Source of the DNA: Cyanobacteria bacterium P01_D01_bin.156
GTDB taxonomy: Bacteria; Cyanobacteriota; Cyanobacteriia; Phormidesmidales; Phormidesmidaceae
DNA: 64,000 nucleotides
Reading direction: 5' to 3'
NCBI GenBank assembly: GCA_039024555.1
Contig: JBCCQQ010000002.1
Coordinates: 128,001 to 192,000 of the forward strand
Made by a program: the position numbers and the translations under genes. Shown here one piece after another: positions 18,234 through 33,105 of the stretch. The notes below the pieces were generated by a model. That model searched no databases, was not told the origin of the DNA, and saw only the letters and a list, made by a program, of their open reading frames with translations. How positions within the stretch are numbered: position 1 is the first letter of the stretch; every line of letters starts with the position of its first letter.

Positions 18234-21200
18234 TCATCCATAAACCGGGGTTTCAATATGAGCAATCAGAGGTTCTTCTAAAGTTTGGGCTTTGTGCAGA
18301 AGTAAACGATTGCAGTAGGCGCGTAGTTGTTCGGCCTGGGGCTCATTGGGGATATAAATTTGGCCGCCTGACTCGGTCACAGATTTATTAAATAGGGGTG
18401 TTTGTAGCAATGCACGGTACGTGGGCAAATCAGTAGTGCGATCGCAAATTAACCCTCGATCCGCTGATGTGGGTACTAAGCCAGGGGGCAAATGGCCTTC
18501 CAACAATGCCAAAATATGCAAATGACACGCCTGGGTATTAATTCCCCGCTGTTCTAAGAGGTGCATGATCGCCCCCACCGGCAAGGGTTGCTGAGGAAAT
18601 ACCCGCAGTAGTTCCATCAGCAAAAAGTAATCACTGTATTGTTGTCGAGTAATATTAAACACCTGGGGATAGCGGGCAACATTGACTAAACCATAGGCCA
18701 CACGGCTACAGCTCTGGGGTAGATCCGCCGCATAGGTATCTTGAATGATGGTCGCATTGGGAAATTTTTGCCGGAGCCATCGAGCAATCGCTGGCAGTGA
18801 CGCTGAGCCCCCCGTACAGACAACTTGCTTAATCGATTGAGCATCGACCGTTTGTTTGCTCAGCAGCTTATCCAAAGCGCCGTTAATACGCTGAATGTAC
18901 GGCAAAAAGATCAGATTTTCGAGATGGCGTCGCTTGATCACCCAGCATTGCCCCCCTAAGCTCAGACGCACCTGATTTTTCTGTTGCAGTGCCCACTTGA
19001 GATGACGTGCTGCTGCCAATAAGCTTTGACCCAAATTTGAAGAGAGCAACCGTTGCTGTAGTCGATAGCGTTGCGCCCAATCCACATGGCCCACTGCCGG
19101 TAATGCCAGATCGCTTAAGTTTAACAGGCTCCAATCGGCATCCTGTGCCAATAGATGCCCCTGCCAATCCCAAGTGTTACTCGGATCTGTATTCTCAATC
19201 GATTGACGACGCTCATCGGGAATTAATAACTGACAAACGATATCTTGATCTAGGGCATCCCCAGCATAGGCAAAGCTGCGTAAGGCAAAGTCACTGTAGT
19301 CAAGATTATTAAGAGTCTGAGGCAAATCGACCAGAGCTAGTTCTGTCATCGTAGCGCCCGCACTGACAACGATTGTGCCTTCTTGCCATTGACAGTTGTA
19401 TAGGCTGGGCTGACGAGAAAGAGGAACAGTCTCAGCTACCGATATTTCGTGGGGGTCAGGCAATCCAGATAGAACTGTTGCGATCGCGTCCTCCACAAAA
19501 ATCACCTGTTCAGGATGCTCAATAATCCCTGCTGCCAGGACTGCTTCCCGCAAATTAAAACTGTAGGTATCAGGCCAATTTGTCGGATAGCCGACAATCA
19601 CACCCTGCAGTTCTCTCCAAACTTGATTTAAGGTTTGCTCATCTAACCCCACAGCCTGCCCATGGTTCATCACATATCTAAGCAACTGAACCATGGCTTG
19701 CAAAACCTGCAGCATCGGTAGCTCTACCCGATCGGACCAGCGGATCCAGGGGTCAGACATGGGTAACGTTTGACCATGCCCCACAGCCACCTTAAATAAG
19801 GGCTTTAAACGATTTACTCCCACCAACTCCGGCACCTCAGAACCGGCAACATTCAGCAATAAATCCTCAAAATCACCCAAAGCATCGTAGCCCACTGCCA
19901 CAGTCTCTTGGGCAGCCGTCATCACCGCCAAGGCTGGTAAACGAAAATGCTTAGCCTCGTCGGACGCATCAGTTTGCCAATACAGGGGATAAACCTGTCC
20001 AGTACGACGATTCATGAACACCACTGATATCCCAGTGGTGCCTACATCTAACCCCAAAAACCAAGCCCCTTCACTATCGACCGCTGGCAATGGTGTCTCC
20101 AAAGGTGGCCCTGAAGCAGCTAATGTAACTAAGGGAGTCGGTTCTTCTACATCCACCTCTGTCGCAATTCCAGCCAAATCTAGCAATGCATCCGTAGCTA
20201 CAACCTCTTCAGGAATATCCAGCGGCACAAAAGCATTAACCGCTTCAGCAGATTCTTCAACCAGAGATGCTGTATCCAGATCTAGCTGAGTCAATGACTC
20301 ATCCTCACTGAGTATCAAAGGATTATCTTCCAGAAATACCACCGCATCTTCGTCTTGAATTGACTCATCTTGTGAGGTTTCTAGATCCGGCAAGGAAGAT
20401 TCTGCCAAAGACGAACCATTGAAGAAATCGTCTAGATCATCCAACTCCTGAGACTCTTCATTGAAAGATAATTCACTCGGTGTAGTCGACTCTTCAACAG
20501 TCAACAAATCATCAAAATCCGACGCTATATCCCCATCAGCGCCAGATGCTATTCCACCATCAGAAGCCTTTGAAAGCGAAGCATCCTCATCAGTCGCCGT
20601 TTGTGTTTGCCAAAATGCCTGCTGCTCAGCCTGTAAAAACTCCTCAGAATCTGCCGACAAATCTAACTCTAAATCATCTCCTTCAAGCTCGAAAGACATG
20701 TCTGGCATAGAAGCTGAATTCAAGGCAGGAGGCTCTGCATCTATGACTGCTGGGGGAGCCTCAATCAGGTTATCCAGTAGCGGCGCTTCTAAATCAGAGA
20801 ACAGCTGCTCATCGTCATCATTAGCCTGCTGCGATAAGGCATTAGAACGCTGACTCAAGTCTGCCAGTTCATTGGCTAGCGAATCAGGGATACCATCATC
20901 CTCATCCAAAGGATCGCCGATGTCGGACCAATCTAACTCATCCGAGAGAGGAGCAGTAAAAGCGGCTATTACACTGTCTTGGCCATCTAACGGAGGATCC
21001 ATATCCACAGAATCTACAGAAAATTCTCTGAAGAGATCATCAGCGTCCGAAACTGAGCTACCTTCCGTAGGGTCCGTCACCAACAGTTCATCAGCATCCT
21101 TAATAGATGCGTCGTCATCAATAGAGGCGTCGCCATCCAAATCGCTACTTAAACTATCTTCAGAACTACTCTCCTCAGGACCTTCATCCATCTCTAAATC

Positions 21201-23270
21201 CCCGAAGTCAAGATCCTGGACGACGGTTTCTAACGTGTCTTGCTCGATGGATTCTAAAGCATTCTCATCTTGAACGGCATAATCTGTCGAAAAATCAACA
21301 TTTGCGAGCTTTTGCAAGTCCTCACCCAGTTGCTCCACCAGCGGGTCATCATCCAACTCAAGCAATAAATGCTGCTCACTGTCTGACTCCACTAAGTTGA
21401 TCAGATCTTCATCTGCAGATGCTGGAATATAGACATCATCAGGCAAATTCTCTGGAATATCTAGCACCGCATCCGCCGTCTGGGACTCTGGCAAAAGATC
21501 TGATAGAGATACTATGCTCTCAGGAGCTTCTACCTGAGGGCTAGTCTCAACAACTTCGGGAACACTATCGCCAAACAGAGTTTCAACCGTCGGTTCAGAC
21601 TCTTCAGCAATCACCTCTTCAGGGGTATGTGAAGATAGATGCTCTGATGCATCCTCTTCTATATTATTTTTACCAACATCCGAGCTCACGACTGACGACT
21701 GGTTAAACAATAGTGCCTCAGCCACCTGTTCAGCCTCAAGCAGCTCAGCTTCAGTCAGTGTTTCAGGCGCATCATCTGCAAAACTAAAGGCCAACAAATC
21801 TTCTGAAAGCGGCCTCAGCTCAGAATCAGGGGCCGATGGCACAGACTTAGTAAACTGTTGTTCCGCTTCATGGGACACAGAGCCTGGGGCGTCAAAATCG
21901 AGATCGAAGTTAAACAGCTCACCGTCAGAAGCTTCAGGTGACAGAGCACTCGATTCCATCGTCGCATCGGCATCAGCACTAACAGCTAAGAGCTCTAAAC
22001 TTTCCTCCACCCCCTCTAAAGAATCACTCAAATCAAGAGGTACAGCATCAAGATTGTCATCACTTGCCAAAAATGCTTCTTCTAAAGGATCGGAAACACT
22101 ATCTACATCAGCATCTTCCTGGATAGCTGCAACGTCATCACGCTCCACATCCGGCGCACCAAACTGAATAACCGTGATATCTCCATCTAAATCGATGTTG
22201 CCACCTTTTAGGTCAATATCCTCTTCTAAAAGAGCCAGATCATTCACATCCAGAGGGTTGGATTGCAGCAACGTAACCTCTTCGTCAGCTTCCGACAGCT
22301 GCAAATCAAGGTCGAGGGTCAGTTCCGACGACGCTGTAACATCACCAATCTCTTCTTCTAAAGCTAAATTTTCTAGGGCCTGTTCCAGCTCATTTAGCTG
22401 TACCGGCTCTACAACCTCAGTGACTCTAGGCTCCTCTAATGGAGCTGGCCCATTCAAGCTACTGGCCAGATAAGAGGAAGCATCTTGCCCAAGTTGTTGG
22501 GCGAGATGATTAATAAATGCATGGAAAATGACTTCCCCCTGACGCCCCAACCCATGCATTTGGGATAACCCTTCTTCCAAAGAATCCCGATAGCTGTCAA
22601 CACTTTTTTGCAACGAATCAAATACAGCGGTCAGAGTGGTATCTAGTTTGACTAATAGCTGATCTGACTGAGCCTGCAATAAACGTACTTGATCTAGACG
22701 TTGACCTGACAACATGGGTACGGGTGAAGTTTCCGCCGCCGACAGCTGCTCTACAGTAGCTGTCTCCATAGCAGCAAAATTCTGTACCATTTGCGCCGAC
22801 AGCTGCTCCTGGAGGCGTTGCATCAGCGTCTCCAAAAACGCATTCAGCTGCTCTTCAGACAGCACGGGTTCCGTACGCCGAGCTTCCAATACATTAATTT
22901 CTGCTTGTAGGCTTTCACGTTTTTGCCGTAGCGCCTCCAGCTCTTGACGCATCGGTCGCAGGGAATTTTCGCGCAGATAACGCATTTCCAACACCAGGCC
23001 CTGCAATACCTGGGAAGCAGCATCTTCTGTCTGGGCAGTCGAAACCTGTGGCGACACCAACTGCCCTGTGTCGGGATCCAGTGGCCCCCATCCCCCTGGA
23101 GATTCGAACATCTGCTCCAACGACTGAAGATAGTCGGATAATTCGCCCAGTAGTTGGCGTTGTCGATCGACTTCTTCCGCAAAGCCTAAGGATAGGCGAG
23201 ATGGTGGTTTAGCCAGAGCAGCTTCAATTTCAGCAATGAGGCGTTGGATTTGATCCTTTTGAGAAGTCAC
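18234..23270 (-). CDS. Large protein: N-terminal coiled coil, very acidic low-complexity linker, C-terminal Hsp70/actin-like ATPase-fold domain
   Basis: WFLGLDVGTTG (phosphate-1), GYPTNW, FVEDAIA, YAGDALDQDI, VVCTGGSASLPAI (adenosine motif); GTG start at 23270 inferred. Confidence 0.8.
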   Translation of the reverse strand: MTSQKDQIQRLIAEIEAALAKPPSRLSLGFAEEVDRQRQLLGELSDYLQSLEQMFESPGGWGPLDPDTGQLVSPQVSTAQTEDAASQVLQGLVLEMRYLRENSLRPMRQELEALRQKRESLQAEINVLEARRTEPVLSEEQLNAFLETLMQRLQEQLSAQMVQNFAAMETATVEQLSAAETSPVPMLSGQRLDQVRLLQAQSDQLLVKLDTTLTAVFDSLQKSVDSYRDSLEEGLSQMHGLGRQGEVIFHAFINHLAQQLGQDASSYLASSLNGPAPLEEPRVTEVVEPVQLNELEQALENLALEEEIGDVTASSELTLDLDLQLSEADEEVTLLQSNPLDVNDLALLEEDIDLKGGNIDLDGDITVIQFGAPDVERDDVAAIQEDADVDSVSDPLEEAFLASDDNLDAVPLDLSDSLEGVEESLELLAVSADADATMESSALSPEASDGELFNFDLDFDAPGSVSHEAEQQFTKSVPSAPDSELRPLSEDLLAFSFADDAPETLTEAELLEAEQVAEALLFNQSSVVSSDVGKNNIEEDASEHLSSHTPEEVIAEESEPTVETLFGDSVPEVVETSPQVEAPESIVSLSDLLPESQTADAVLDIPENLPDDVYIPASADEDLINLVESDSEQHLLLELDDDPLVEQLGEDLQKLANVDFSTDYAVQDENALESIEQDTLETVVQDLDFGDLEMDEGPEESSSEDSLSSDLDGDASIDDDASIKDADELLVTDPTEGSSVSDADDLFREFSVDSVDMDPPLDGQDSVIAAFTAPLSDELDWSDIGDPLDEDDGIPDSLANELADLSQRSNALSQQANDDDEQLFSDLEAPLLDNLIEAPPAVIDAEPPALNSASMPDMSFELEGDDLELDLSADSEEFLQAEQQAFWQTQTATDEDASLSKASDGGIASGADGDIASDFDDLLTVEESTTPSELSFNEESQELDDLDDFFNGSSLAESSLPDLETSQDESIQDEDAVVFLEDNPLILSEDESLTQLDLDTASLVEESAEAVNAFVPLDIPEEVVATDALLDLAGIATEVDVEEPTPLVTLAASGPPLETPLPAVDSEGAWFLGLDVGTTGISVVFMNRRTGQVYPLYWQTDASDEAKHFRLPALAVMTAAQETVAVGYDALGDFEDLLLNVAGSEVPELVGVNRLKPLFKVAVGHGQTLPMSDPWIRWSDRVELPMLQVLQAMVQLLRYVMNHGQAVGLDEQTLNQVWRELQGVIVGYPTNWPDTYSFNLREAVLAAGIIEHPEQVIFVEDAIATVLSGLPDPHEISVAETVPLSRQPSLYNCQWQEGTIVVSAGATMTELALVDLPQTLNNLDYSDFALRSFAYAGDALDQDIVCQLLIPDERRQSIENTDPSNTWDWQGHLLAQDADWSLLNLSDLALPAVGHVDWAQRYRLQQRLLSSNLGQSLLAAARHLKWALQQKNQVRLSLGGQCWVIKRRHLENLIFLPYIQRINGALDKLLSKQTVDAQSIKQVVCTGGSASLPAIARWLRQKFPNATIIQDTYAADLPQSCSRVAYGLVNVARYPQVFNITRQQYSDYFLLMELLRVFPQQPLPVGAIMHLLEQRGINTQACHLHILALLEGHLPPGLVPTSADRGLICDRTTDLPTYRALLQTPLFNKSVTESGGQIYIPNEPQAEQLRAYCNRLLLHKAQTLEEPLIAHIETPVYG

Positions 23271-23781
23271 AATGCGGCCTTTCAACAACGAACTCTGCAA
23301 ATCGGAGGATACCCTACCAAACCCTAGGGATGACAGGACCGACCAATGGAATGCCCAAAGTGTAAAGCAGGCTGGCTAAAAAAGCACAAGCTCCTTCTCT
23401 TTATGGGAATTCAGGAGGAAATCCTGACAGCCAACACAATGGATATCACAACCTAGCAACCGTCATCCTAGTCGATGGGTTGAACCCTAACATTTAGATA
23501 TGAAGTTAAGTTAAGGATCAAACTATAGGGGAAGCGAGCAATCGTGCTGTAACCTGTTTTAGGCAAATAAAACAATTAAAGACAAACTAATTCTTCATGT
23601 TTGATGCAGCCGTTGTCCTAACCATTAAGCGATGGGTTATCTAACCTTCGATGTCTAACTAAAGAGGTCAACAGGGTGGTGGCGTGCTAAGTGACTTGCC
23701 ATATATCTATCTCGAAAAAAGACCTCCATTCTTCGATTTTCCTGTTTTAATGAGTCCACATAACCATGGCCTCCACCTCCT

Positions 23782-28184: not shown

Positions 28185-28426
28185 GGTGTACACAATCCGA
28201 TCTTGATGACGGACAGTTCAGAGAGTATGAATGCTTATGAGAGGTAAGCGTTCAGCATTAGTGCTCAGAGAATTCTCTTTACGTCAAACCCATAGAATAG
28301 AAGCCACAAAATCAGCAATCACCCTGTTGGCTGCCAAATAAGTAAATGTAAGGATGATCACCATAAGGAAGCAGCTAAAACACTCGCTTCTGCCATTGTT
28401 GTTTCTAGTTAAAAGGACTTATGGTT

Positions 28427-28585
28427 ATGTCCAAGCGCAATCAGACATCTCAAAAAGTTTTATGGCAACCTATTTCTGGTAAGCAATCAGAAGTTGTAAG
28501 GGGTGGCTTCGGATTTAGTTCTGGAACTTCACCTTCAGGCAACTCTTGGTGTGCACAGACGAAGAACATCATATTTTTACGTTAG
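28427..28585 (+). CDS. Double-glycine leader peptide precursor 1 (52 aa)
   Basis: MSKRNQTSQKVLWQPISGKQSEVVRGG|FGFSSGTSPSGNSWCAQTKNIIFLR*; AAAAGGA upstream; in-frame ATG also at 28421; paralog of next two ORFs. Confidence 0.85.
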   Translation: MSKRNQTSQKVLWQPISGKQSEVVRGGFGFSSGTSPSGNSWCAQTKNIIFLR

Positions 28586-28669
28586 GCACAAACATCTTTT
28601 CAGTAGAGGTACGCCACATCCAGTGCAGTAGCCTTTTAATTTCCAAGATAAGGTAAAAAAGTTTTGGAA

Positions 28670-28712
28670 AGTCAAGCTAGGATTCCAGCGATACAGGGAT
28701 CCTAGTTTGACT
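28670..28712 (+). terminator. Hairpin downstream of precursor 1
   Basis: AGTCAAGCTAGGATTCC-9 nt-GGGATCCTAGTTTGACT (with G-U pairs). Confidence 0.6.
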
Positions 28713-29031
28713 ATTAGTGAATAACAGTTAACCCTATCTCACCTATGTAGGCTCAAAGGTAACACCCAAATTCGACCTAGGAATAAAAATGAGACAGTTA
28801 ACGACATGGCTGGATTACGGAAAATACAGAGACTGATTAGGAGAAATTATCAAGCGTTTATGGTCGCTCAGGTCTCTTTACCTTAGACACATAAAACACC
28901 AGTCACACGCTCAGCACTGCTACCCTTACTCAACCGAAGTGGAAATGCCAACATAGTTGACATGGAAAAGATACGCTAAAGCGCTTAATCCCGTCACTGT
29001 TCTTTCTACTTGAAAAGGTACAAGTTCTAAC

Positions 29032-29178
29032 ATGTCTAAGCAAAACCAATCTTCTAAAGAAGCTCTCTGGAAGCCCCTTTCCAATCAACAAGCAGAAGTT
29101 GTAAATGGTGGGTTGTTTCGGAGTTATTGTAACCGCACAAAAAAATCGATGTACCGTTGGCACAACTACGGGCAGTGA
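29032..29178 (+). CDS. Double-glycine leader peptide precursor 2 (48 aa)
   Basis: MSKQNQSSKEALWKPLSNQQAEVVNGG|LFRSYCNRTKKSMYRWHNYGQ*. Confidence 0.85.
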   Translation: MSKQNQSSKEALWKPLSNQQAEVVNGGLFRSYCNRTKKSMYRWHNYGQ

Positions 29179-29222
29179 GCAGAGTGGATTCAATGTGGCA
29201 AGGTTAAAATAATTACTAAACC

Positions 29223-29264
29223 AACGCTTGAATTTCGACAGTCTCGAAACTCAAGCGTTTTTTT
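29223..29264 (+). terminator. Intrinsic terminator downstream of precursor 2
   Basis: AACGCTTGAATTTCGA-cagtc-TCGAAACTCAAGCGTT then T-run. Confidence 0.75.
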
Positions 29265-29605
29265 AATGGCTAATTTAGACGATAGTGAACTATTTATGTA
29301 GAAACGGCCTAACAAAAAGGCCAACTGTCACATGGGTAAAACATCCATTCTTTAGTCAATACTCCGCAGCAAAGCCCTTATCAATGTGTGGAATAATTAC
29401 GTTCACCACAGATAGTCAGAATTGAAAGTAGAACTGGTTGCACAACGAAATATATGGAGGTCTGTGAAGCATTCATATTTGAAGAATCCTCTTTACACAA
29501 ATCCCATAAAGCACCCGCCAAAGATTCAGTGAACACACACTGACCTTATGAAGGTATAAATGCGAACATAGTTTTGCAAGTGATGTTCACCAAGATATAC
29601 GCTCT

Positions 29606-29770
29606 ATGTTCAAACATAACCAGTCATCGAAAACAGTTCTTTGGCAGCCTCTATCTAACAAACAAGAAGAAACCTTAAAGGGTGGCGGACGCCGTCGTGG
29701 CAGGAGTTATCAGTACAACGATTGGTGTGGTCGGACAAGGAAGGTCATGATTAAAACCGGTCGTAGCTAG
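29606..29770 (+). CDS. Double-glycine leader peptide precursor 3 (54 aa)
   Basis: MFKHNQSSKTVLWQPLSNKQEETLKGG|GRRRGRSYQYNDWCGRTRKVMIKTGRS*. Confidence 0.85.
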   Translation: MFKHNQSSKTVLWQPLSNKQEETLKGGGRRRGRSYQYNDWCGRTRKVMIKTGRS

Positions 29771-29912
29771 TTGCTACTTTGAGTCCTCTCGACGAGTGAG
29801 GGTTAGGTAAGAAAAATTGCATTGATATAGTTGGGGTCACTACTCTGATAGAACTCCAGCTTTTTCATATGCTACTTAAGAAATTAAGGGACTTTAATCG
29901 CCTAGTTTTCAA

Positions 29913-29983
29913 AGGCGGCACCCAGATTCGAACTGGGGATAAAGGATTTGCAATCCTCTGCCTTACCACTTGGCCATGCCGCC
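29913..29983 (-). tRNA. trnC: tRNA-Cys (GCA)
   Basis: Minus strand GGCGGCATGGCCAAGTGGTAAGGCAGAGGATTGCAAATCCTTTATCCCCAGTTCGAATCTGGGTGCCGCCT; cloverleaf, GCA anticodon, no encoded CCA. Confidence 0.97.
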
Positions 29984-32406: not shown

Positions 32407-33105
32407 ATGGGCACTTGGATTAAGGAAACCGATAAAGCAATTTATTTGATGCAAGGAGGGTACTACATTTCTAAAATTTCTAAATATCCCTCTAAATCAA
32501 ACCCCAATGAAAAAGTGCTCAATATTAGCGGCATGAAATCATGGTTTCGTCGCTCAGATGCTCCCCGTGGGATGACCGTTTCCCAAACGGGGCCTGAACC
32601 TAAGCCCATCCCTAAGCCAACAACAGCTCCCGTTAATAGCGGTAGCTCATCCAGCACACGCCAGACCAATACCAGCGGTGTTGGTTTGATTAAATCTTTT
32701 GAGGGACTGCGACTGAGGGCTTATCAAGATGCCGTTGGTGTATGGACCATTGGTTATGGCACTACACGGGGTGTTAAGCCTGGTCAAGAAATTAGTGAGG
32801 CCCAGGCTGAAGCATTGCTAAAAACTGATCTCACTCGCTTTGAGAGCTCCGTTAACCAAGCTCTTCGAGTTCCTGTTAATGACAATCAGTTTGCTGCCCT
32901 AGTGTCGTTTACCTATAACGTGGGCTCGGGCGCAATGAGAAGCTCCACGCTCATGAGAAAGCTAAACCGACGCGATATTTACGGCGCTTCTAATGAGTTT
33001 CTTCGCTGGAATCGTGCTGGAGGCAGAGTGCTGGCAGGGCTTACCCGCCGCCGTAAAGCAGAACGAGCTTTATTTTTAGGCCAGGATTACCGCCGCTACT
33101 TATAA
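32407..33105 (+). CDS. GH24 (phage-type) lysozyme with extra N-terminal domain
   Basis: IKSFEGLRLRAYQDAVGVWTIGYG (E-x8-D-x5-T); QFAALVSFTYNVG; GLTRRRKAE. Confidence 0.93.
   Translation: MGTWIKETDKAIYLMQGGYYISKISKYPSKSNPNEKVLNISGMKSWFRRSDAPRGMTVSQTGPEPKPIPKPTTAPVNSGSSSSTRQTNTSGVGLIKSFEGLRLRAYQDAVGVWTIGYGTTRGVKPGQEISEAQAEALLKTDLTRFESSVNQALRVPVNDNQFAALVSFTYNVGSGAMRSSTLMRKLNRRDIYGASNEFLRWNRAGGRVLAGLTRRRKAERALFLGQDYRRYL

Follow-up and report, generated by a model that had tools for sequence, protein, structure and literature searches.

The three small genes that lie between positions 28,427 and 29,770 of the window (the whole 64,000-nucleotide stretch that was analysed) are best read, from their sequences, as members of an undescribed family of secreted peptides of the cyanobacterial double-glycine kind, distinguished by a leader signature of its own, a conserved core built around a Cys turn and an unusual scatter of self-contained cassettes at a distance from the exporter. 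The reading that we prefer, with a probability of roughly 0.6, is that these are exported, unmodified hairpin peptides, whatever their role. The family is large, is under coding constraint and has a common cassette anatomy; in the window it occupies an insertion beside a tRNA-Cys gene, with no processing genes nearby, and an intact exporter is encoded on another contig. No published description of the family was apparent in the full-text literature, a coverage outside which most subscription journals lie, and within it no literature paired "Leptothoe" with "double glycine". The features of the array are as follows.

28185-29910, no strand: lineage-specific insertion of ~1.73 kb, 40.7% GC against 47.1% for the window
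28223-28420, plus strand: upstream module 1 (nhmmer E 7e-13, this copy having been excluded from the profile; direct repeat D1; folding z 0.44)
28427-28585, plus strand: precursor 1, 52 aa, a 27-aa LW/GG leader (28427-28507) and a 25-aa core with W-C-x-x-T-K
28670-28712, plus strand: hairpin after precursor 1 (−26.8 kcal/mol, z −6.2; inverted repeat I3)
28753-28787, plus strand: decayed tRNA-Cys 3'-end copy, which matches 29909-29943 over 35 nt at 80% identity
28815-29023, plus strand: upstream module 2 (nhmmer E 6e-28, a training member; folding z 0.09)
29032-29178, plus strand: precursor 2, 48 aa, a 27-aa leader (29032-29112) and a 21-aa core with Y-C-x-x-T-K
29223-29268, plus strand: hairpin and T-run after precursor 2 (−19 kcal/mol, z −5.6), intrinsic-terminator-like
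29447-29603, plus strand: upstream module 3 (nhmmer E 1e-19, a training member; folding z −1.71)
29606-29770, plus strand: precursor 3, 54 aa, a 27-aa leader (29606-29686) and a 27-aa core with W-C-x-x-T-R
29829-29866, plus strand: weaker hairpin and T-run after precursor 3 (−14.5 kcal/mol, z −2.2; 7 of 200 shuffles fold equally well)
29913-29983, minus strand: tRNA-Cys(GCA), whose 3' end borders the insertion

An earlier note on this DNA had described three plus-strand ORFs with 27-aa leaders ending in GG, and the positions and leaders proved to be as it gave them; precursor 1 has a second in-frame ATG at 28421, and the leader of precursor 3 ends in GGG, which leaves its cut site ambiguous by one residue (the core is 26 aa if the cut falls after GGG). 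The cores are cationic, as had been proposed, with net charges of +2, +5 and +8 for ORFs 1, 2 and 3. They had also been called divergent and hypervariable; the first term has to be qualified, because all three cores have [WY]-C-x-x-T-[KR] in common, and the second does not hold, since the Cys is invariant and the Thr near-invariant among the aligned members. In the leader, GG is invariant, with L/I-S at −12/−11, V/L/T at −4 and W at −15, so that hydrophobic residues at −4, −12 and −15 accompany the GG cleavage motif, the pattern by which C39 double-glycine precursors are recognised. The E-(I/L) at −8/−7 of the Gram-negative consensus, as quoted in the accessible part of PMC3140520, is absent, with Q at −8 and A, S, E or Q at −7, and a CTB-bacteriocin member in genome G211 departs from it likewise.

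The whole genome (G000, the source genome; 6.6 Mb, 99% complete) was searched in all six frames. At E<1e-5 the leader profile recovered 21 frames, and nothing in the reversed sequences scored better than E 0.047, so the array is not a chance occurrence; a broader leader profile recovered 24 members at E<0.05 and none in the reversed-sequence control. The search proposed in the earlier note thus yielded 24 paralogues, which lie on 16 contigs as singletons and as arrays of two or three; downstream analyses took 23 of them, omitting C33:25829. The comparison of leader and core that the same note had suggested gave a pN/pS of 0.50 and a corrected dN/dS of 0.29 for the leaders over 351 non-independent pairs, and a pN/pS of 0.49 for the 8-codon core motif, at which synonymous sites are saturated. 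In the closest pair, the core differs by 2 non-synonymous against 7 synonymous changes, third codon positions are the least conserved among the members, and the invariant Leu is encoded by all six Leu codons across the family. These patterns show that the leaders are under purifying selection and that the three ORFs, which had been put forward as coding paralogues with a double-glycine leader, are almost certainly real genes. Monophyly of the three window copies was considered and set aside, the bootstrap being only 45-59 in a tree that omits six copies without a comparable upstream region.

Cores of another type, which lack the Cys motif, occur in the same genome (C46:24091-24225, C61:4992-5174, C7:71013-71159 and C33:26448-26597) and on contig C4 of genome G013 (locus L034). 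They often end in Arg-Gly or Arg-Arg-Gly and their upstream region looks partly different; one could speculate that the C-terminal Gly is an amidation or recognition signal. One member at C77:11951-14058 (L006) adjoins genes that, on visual inspection, look like a plasmid-partition pair, with an NHLP-type exporter 5 kb away.

Each of the three units of the array is ~600 nt long (repeat spacing 599 and 615) and consists of an upstream module, the ORF and a hairpin. The module is common to most members of the family. In the alignment, the leader region of module 3 is shorter than in the others and its ribosome-binding site is weaker. A profile built from the 215 nt in front of 17 motif-bearing genes found 17 places in the genome at E<1e-5, 16 of which precede family genes (4 of them untrained) and one of which is an orphan; pairs of upstream regions from different contigs scored >30 in 31% of 97 cases, against 0.6% of 780 control pairs. 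Modules without an intact precursor, at C14:41693-41586, C50:2122-2213 and C7:66800-66690, are possibly dead cassettes or other members of a regulon. A structured RNA was rejected as the identity of the module: Rfam gave no match for it (only a weak FuFi-1 match, E 0.18, over hairpin 1) and none of the three copies folds better than its shuffles, and the module is therefore read as a DNA element. A scan for sigma-70 promoters returned no site. By inference from its sequence and position, the module is probably a promoter with regulator sites, a 5' UTR and a ribosome-binding site. On the downstream side, the hairpins of 23 members have a mean folding energy of −21.0 kcal/mol against −11.2 ± 2.9 kcal/mol for shuffled sequences, and the one at 28670-28712 is a probable terminator or stabilising stem.

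The insertion that carries the array is flanked by a conserved gene for a 227-aa membrane protein and by tRNA-Cys. Both flanks were visible in 13 of the 20 relative loci, with a gap of ~20-420 nt between them against 1.73 kb here; the array is absent from all 13, and none of the 20 loci gave a leader match. The decayed tRNA copy between units 1 and 2 has a local score of 42 against a maximum of 23 in 300 shuffles, which fits either tandem duplication or one integration event. Serial tRNA integration as the origin of the whole family was rejected, with one significant tRNA scar and only 3 of 23 members, those of the window, less than 3 kb from a tRNA. The three-gene array on contig C67 is also an insertion, with gaps of 310 and 417 nt in the only 2 genomes, out of 5, in which synteny is kept, against ~1.9 kb here.

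Neither an exporter nor a modifying enzyme adjoins the window array, and the neighbours that were scanned include fructosamine kinase, an M16 peptidase and CobT. Elsewhere, the most conserved neighbour of Cys-type genes is a gene with a filamentous-haemagglutinin domain (C106 of the source genome, G013, L132, L133): the G013 copy is 73% identical to that on C106 and accompanies four precursors, the L133 copy is 56% identical, and the gene beside the L132 precursor is broken. The ancestral Cys-type site was thus likely to have been beside such a gene, as far as these neighbourhoods indicate. Double-glycine arrays at L072 (G033), L075 (G032), L120 (G016), L032 and L034 also stand head-to-head or in line with filamentous-haemagglutinin-domain genes encoding 900-1200 aa, and the source genome has 22 matches to the filamentous-haemagglutinin N-terminal domain. 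The window itself also encodes a very acidic 1688-aa protein (18234-23300, minus strand) with a C-terminal Hsp70/actin-like region (weak, E 0.0016) and a phage-lysozyme-family gene (32407-33105, plus strand, E 2e-52).

Of the 23 cores, 16 have the motif [WFY]-C-x-x-T, usually followed by K or R; in 10,000 shuffles the mean number was 0.27 and the highest 4. An alignment of 32 members, each either picked because it has the motif or recovered by a profile based on it, shows no variation at Leu, Gly-Gly and Cys and almost none at Thr. Across the family, the cores are 17-35 aa long (2-3.9 kDa). AlphaFold2 models of ORF3 and ORF2 contain two-strand hairpins (E34-41/E46-53 and E28-33/E38-43, respectively), in both of which the Cys ends strand one and is followed by a four-residue turn; pLDDT is 82-92 over the hairpin core, the leader is of low confidence and pTM is 0.28-0.30. 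Cys-x-x-Thr is accordingly predicted by these models to form the turn of a beta-hairpin, and the C-x-x-T-G/K turn presumably resembles half of a zinc-ribbon knuckle. No solved structure matched: a fold search returned nothing at E<=0.001, and the best hit of a PDB sequence search had an E of 0.73. Loci L135 (G515) and L136 (G522) have family leaders followed by 3-residue cores, probably truncated genes.

The full-length profile matched 4 of 22 genomes of the genus, 10 of 173 of the taxonomic family and 5 of 401 of the class, and the leader-only profile 13 of 401 class genomes at E<=0.01. Among 1.84 billion representative sequences, 27 proteins reached E<=0.001, of which 10 belong to this genome, 15 are others (13 of these with the Cys motif) and two were discarded as false matches (P0016, a repeat protein, and P0022, ankyrin-like). 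Members come from Leptothoe kymatousa, Phormidesmis sp. RL_2_1 and two "Cyanobacteria bacterium P01" bins, and all of these proteins are annotated as hypothetical; the host of the array would accordingly be, in all probability, a filamentous cyanobacterium similar to Leptothoe. No bacteriocin cluster in L. kymatousa TAU-MAC 1615 is reported in the accessible portion of PMC8225149; the record from this strain (L070) encodes a family member. The leader class extends more widely than the Cys-type core; the latter was seen only in genomes of this taxonomic family and in unplaced metagenome proteins. A metagenome contig scan with P0002 confirmed no member, and a protein-cluster feature comparison returned only unnamed clusters, at up to 0.90. 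In passing, a ~100-nt intergenic element at L008:5155-5261 has at least 11 matches in G013 at ~80% identity and is probably a small dispersed repeat.

The earlier note had proposed that a C39 peptidase exporter processes the precursors, and this is likely, judging by the gene neighbourhoods in other genomes, where the leader lies beside C39 exporters of one clade together with HlyD. The source genome has five C39 matches, two on contig C49 and one each on C46, C38 and C77. The 714-aa exporter at C49:25528-27672 and the exporter at C46:28945-31158 both keep the Gln, Cys, His and Asp and both adjoin an HlyD gene; two leader genes lie ~4-5 kb from the latter, and no precursor was detected adjoining the former. 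The other C39 proteins are a second one on C49 without the His, a degenerate one on C38 and one of NHLP type on C77; a long-type 994-aa transporter was dismissed as a shared processing enzyme, as it is without the catalytic residues. For comparison, active and degenerate C39 domains are distinguished in the accessible part of PMC10986499. The C49 exporter is 74-78% identical to its orthologues in G016, G032 and G033, with which it groups at 100/100 support, and in all three genomes leader genes lie directly upstream. When loci were found by peptide search alone, a ~714-aa C39 exporter adjoined the leader genes in G033, G032, G048, G083 and G189, with HlyD in four of these loci. In seven loci from genomes outside the leader profile, a tally that omits one further weak leader match, the exporter was adjacent in four, HlyD only in one and neither in two. 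At L133, a Cys-type precursor is flanked by an exporter on one side and on the other by the filamentous-haemagglutinin gene, which is 56% identical to one beside two members here. The presence of an exporter is by itself weak evidence, since C39 exporters are frequent in genomes without detected family genes (20 of 22 at E<=1e-150).

At the loci L150 (G415), L073 (G083), L071 (G048) and L074 (G189), arrays of as many as eight double-glycine genes are accompanied by an exporter and AraC regulators. Two of these arrays have a PatA/PatG-like protease (with a family match for L073), and similar cores recur across distant genomes, between L150 and L071 and among L150, L073 and L074.

No Pfam or NCBIfam model exceeded its cut-off for these genes when matches to known families were sought, as the earlier note had advised. 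The closest relative is the CTB model NF038167 (cyan_ocin_like; cut-off 32 bits), which gave 15.7 bits for ORF2 and no match for ORFs 1 and 3, weak leader-only matches for 5 of 29 members (best E 0.0026) and, on the whole genome, four matches of which none exceeded the cut-off. Both groups have a cyanobacterial double-glycine leader of similar shape and tandem arrays, and a true CTB member in G211 (64.9 bits) stands beside an exporter 54% identical to that on C49. The present leader, in contrast, has an invariant Leu-Trp, the cores are short and cationic with an invariant Cys as against the 72-position CTB model, and the genes are mostly dispersed far from the exporter. We take the leader to be a sister of the CTB-bacteriocin leader; the family, which would behave as a substrate of double-glycine exporters, is not a member of CTB. 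Phosphate limitation induces CTB genes, according to the accessible part of PMC9846622. A different precursor-like double-glycine ORF with a repeated core, at C31:29786-30046, is the best match to the CTB model in the genome (20.9 bits, under the cut-off).

The EbfG peptides of Synechococcus elongatus are GG peptides cleaved and secreted by the C39 exporter PteB, as described in PMC4997328. EbfG1-4 are likewise encoded by small, previously unannotated GG-motif genes, and they show that peptides of this kind need not be antibiotics, but in the same account their cores are 6-7 kDa and their genes are cotranscribed and clustered with pteB, which by description sets them apart; the present cores of 2-3.9 kDa are encoded in separate cassettes. 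With class II microcins, class II bacteriocins and ComC pheromones, the family has in common the double-glycine leader and a cationic core read as unmodified, but its cassettes have no exporter, sensor kinase or evident immunity gene, it comprises 24 paralogues and it matches none of those profiles; ComC and type-A lantibiotic clusters were only weak feature neighbours (0.82-0.87). The prochlorosins (ProcA/ProcM) also have many paralogous precursors with a common leader served in trans, and the procA genes are dispersed; unlike them, the present family was found with no LanM/LanC and no Nif11 leader match, and its core keeps a fixed motif. Nif11/NHLP leaders gave no Pfam or NCBIfam match among 29 members at E<=10, the leaders here being 24-34 aa long. 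In PMC3140520, as far as its accessible text goes, a stand-alone LanM is noted and 290 cyanobacterial precursors were sought within 20 kb of clusters; strings of the LW type in five of its supplementary files, which may not list precursor sequences, gave one unrelated match. PMC12267927, accessible in part, is a further paper among those cited for known relatives.

The RiPP label of the earlier note found no support, as no fitting modifying enzyme was found. If the peptides were true RiPPs, a trans-acting enzyme would modify Cys-x-x-Thr, by thioether formation, S-glycosylation or other Cys chemistry, with one enzyme serving many scattered precursors. In favour of this, a lone invariant Cys with Thr as the third residue after it is the kind of motif that modifying enzymes read; the leader, moreover, exceeds the length required by an exporter, and conservation extends in part to its N-terminal portion. 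The only SPASM radical SAM gene of the genome (C55) lies ~1.3 kb from two members. This gene was rejected as the maturase, since it belongs to the core genome of the genus: 20 of 22 genus genomes have it at 86-92% identity, most of them lacking the peptides, and it was not found in the peptide-bearing G013. Radical SAM RiPP maturase models gave nothing near their cut-offs. LanC-like domains, present in 5 of 22 genus genomes, were found neither in the source genome nor in G013; the source genome gave no match for YcaO (controls responded), DUF4135 (a search without a responding positive control) or a PatA/PatG-like protease, DUF692 was missing from all four genomes searched (controls responded), and no enzyme gene recurs beside the listed member loci, for which mostly ORF lists and some scanned genes were available. 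This search covered LanC/LanM, YcaO, DUF4135, DUF692, PatA/PatG-like proteases and, of the 20 radical SAM genes, the one with a SPASM domain. Since LanC, YcaO and DUF692 were not found and the SPASM radical SAM gene is genus-wide, the label is unsupported and RiPP status seems rather unlikely; the cores probably undergo no enzymatic tailoring.

It is less likely again that the products are small proteins which are not exported, or are exported by another route, and have inherited their leader from exporter substrates; they would then act inside the cell, or leave it uncut through the degenerate long-type transporter or with their filamentous-haemagglutinin neighbours, whose gene is so often the one beside Cys-type members. 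G013 is the genome that speaks for this, for it retains at least 9 intact leader genes, its sole C39 match is a degenerate long-type protein without the catalytic Cys and His, and no active C39 exporter was found, both syntenic exporter sites being empty inside gap-free contigs. Because that genome is only 75% complete, and also misses the SPASM gene that 20 of 22 genus genomes have, the gap is a caution and not a refutation; the invariant GG, the fact that the exporter-facing positions are the most conserved part of the precursor, and the two exporters of the source genome (C49, C46) that fall in the expected clade and retain the catalytic Cys and His all count against non-export. Selfish or neutral copying of a small cassette, leaving decaying repeats of little peptide function, is very improbable: a patchy occurrence in 4 of the 22 genomes of the genus, an insertion that left a scar at a tRNA end, the orphan modules on C14, C50 and C7 and the 3-aa cores in G515 and G522 would all agree with it, but dN/dS well under 1 and the codon-position pattern would not, the window copies keep all their frames open at only 56-59% DNA identity (upstream region and leader), the insertion contains no transposase or integrase, and tRNA proximity is confined to the three members of the window.

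For exported, unmodified hairpin peptides, the following course can be proposed. Each cassette would be transcribed alone from a common, co-regulated promoter, and the leader would dock on the C39 domain of the 714-aa C49 exporter, the C46 exporter being a second candidate. That domain would cut after GG, and the core would exit via the neighbouring HlyD adaptor and a channel in the outer membrane. The released cationic core of 17-35 aa, probably unmodified, would fold into the two-strand hairpin with its Cys-x-x-Thr turn, where the single Cys may cap the turn or link two peptides. As to their role, the leading though tentative suggestion is a diversified arsenal of microcin-like or class II bacteriocin-like peptides against competing microbes; it is weakened by the insertion, in which no obvious candidate immunity gene was evident among ATG ORFs of at least 25 aa. 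A signalling role is doubtful, a matrix or surface role by analogy with EbfG somewhat more so, and any other role quite improbable.

A bolder proposal, which we consider unlikely, is that the Cys-x-x-Thr hairpins are a new class of peptide secreted by cyanobacteria. Their single Cys would either receive a novel modification from an enzyme acting in trans, or serve to bind metal or to cross-link, so that 16 different monomers could pair combinatorially, and the promoter-gene-terminator cassettes would form one regulon away from the exporter. Genome mining would miss most of the 24 genes, because such searches centre on exporters or modifying enzymes. The family provides 16 natural variants of one 17-35-aa scaffold, directly synthesisable for assay, and thus a clean test of the function of cyanobacterial double-glycine peptides, as well as a test of how a library of secreted peptides spreads and is co-regulated away from its exporter.
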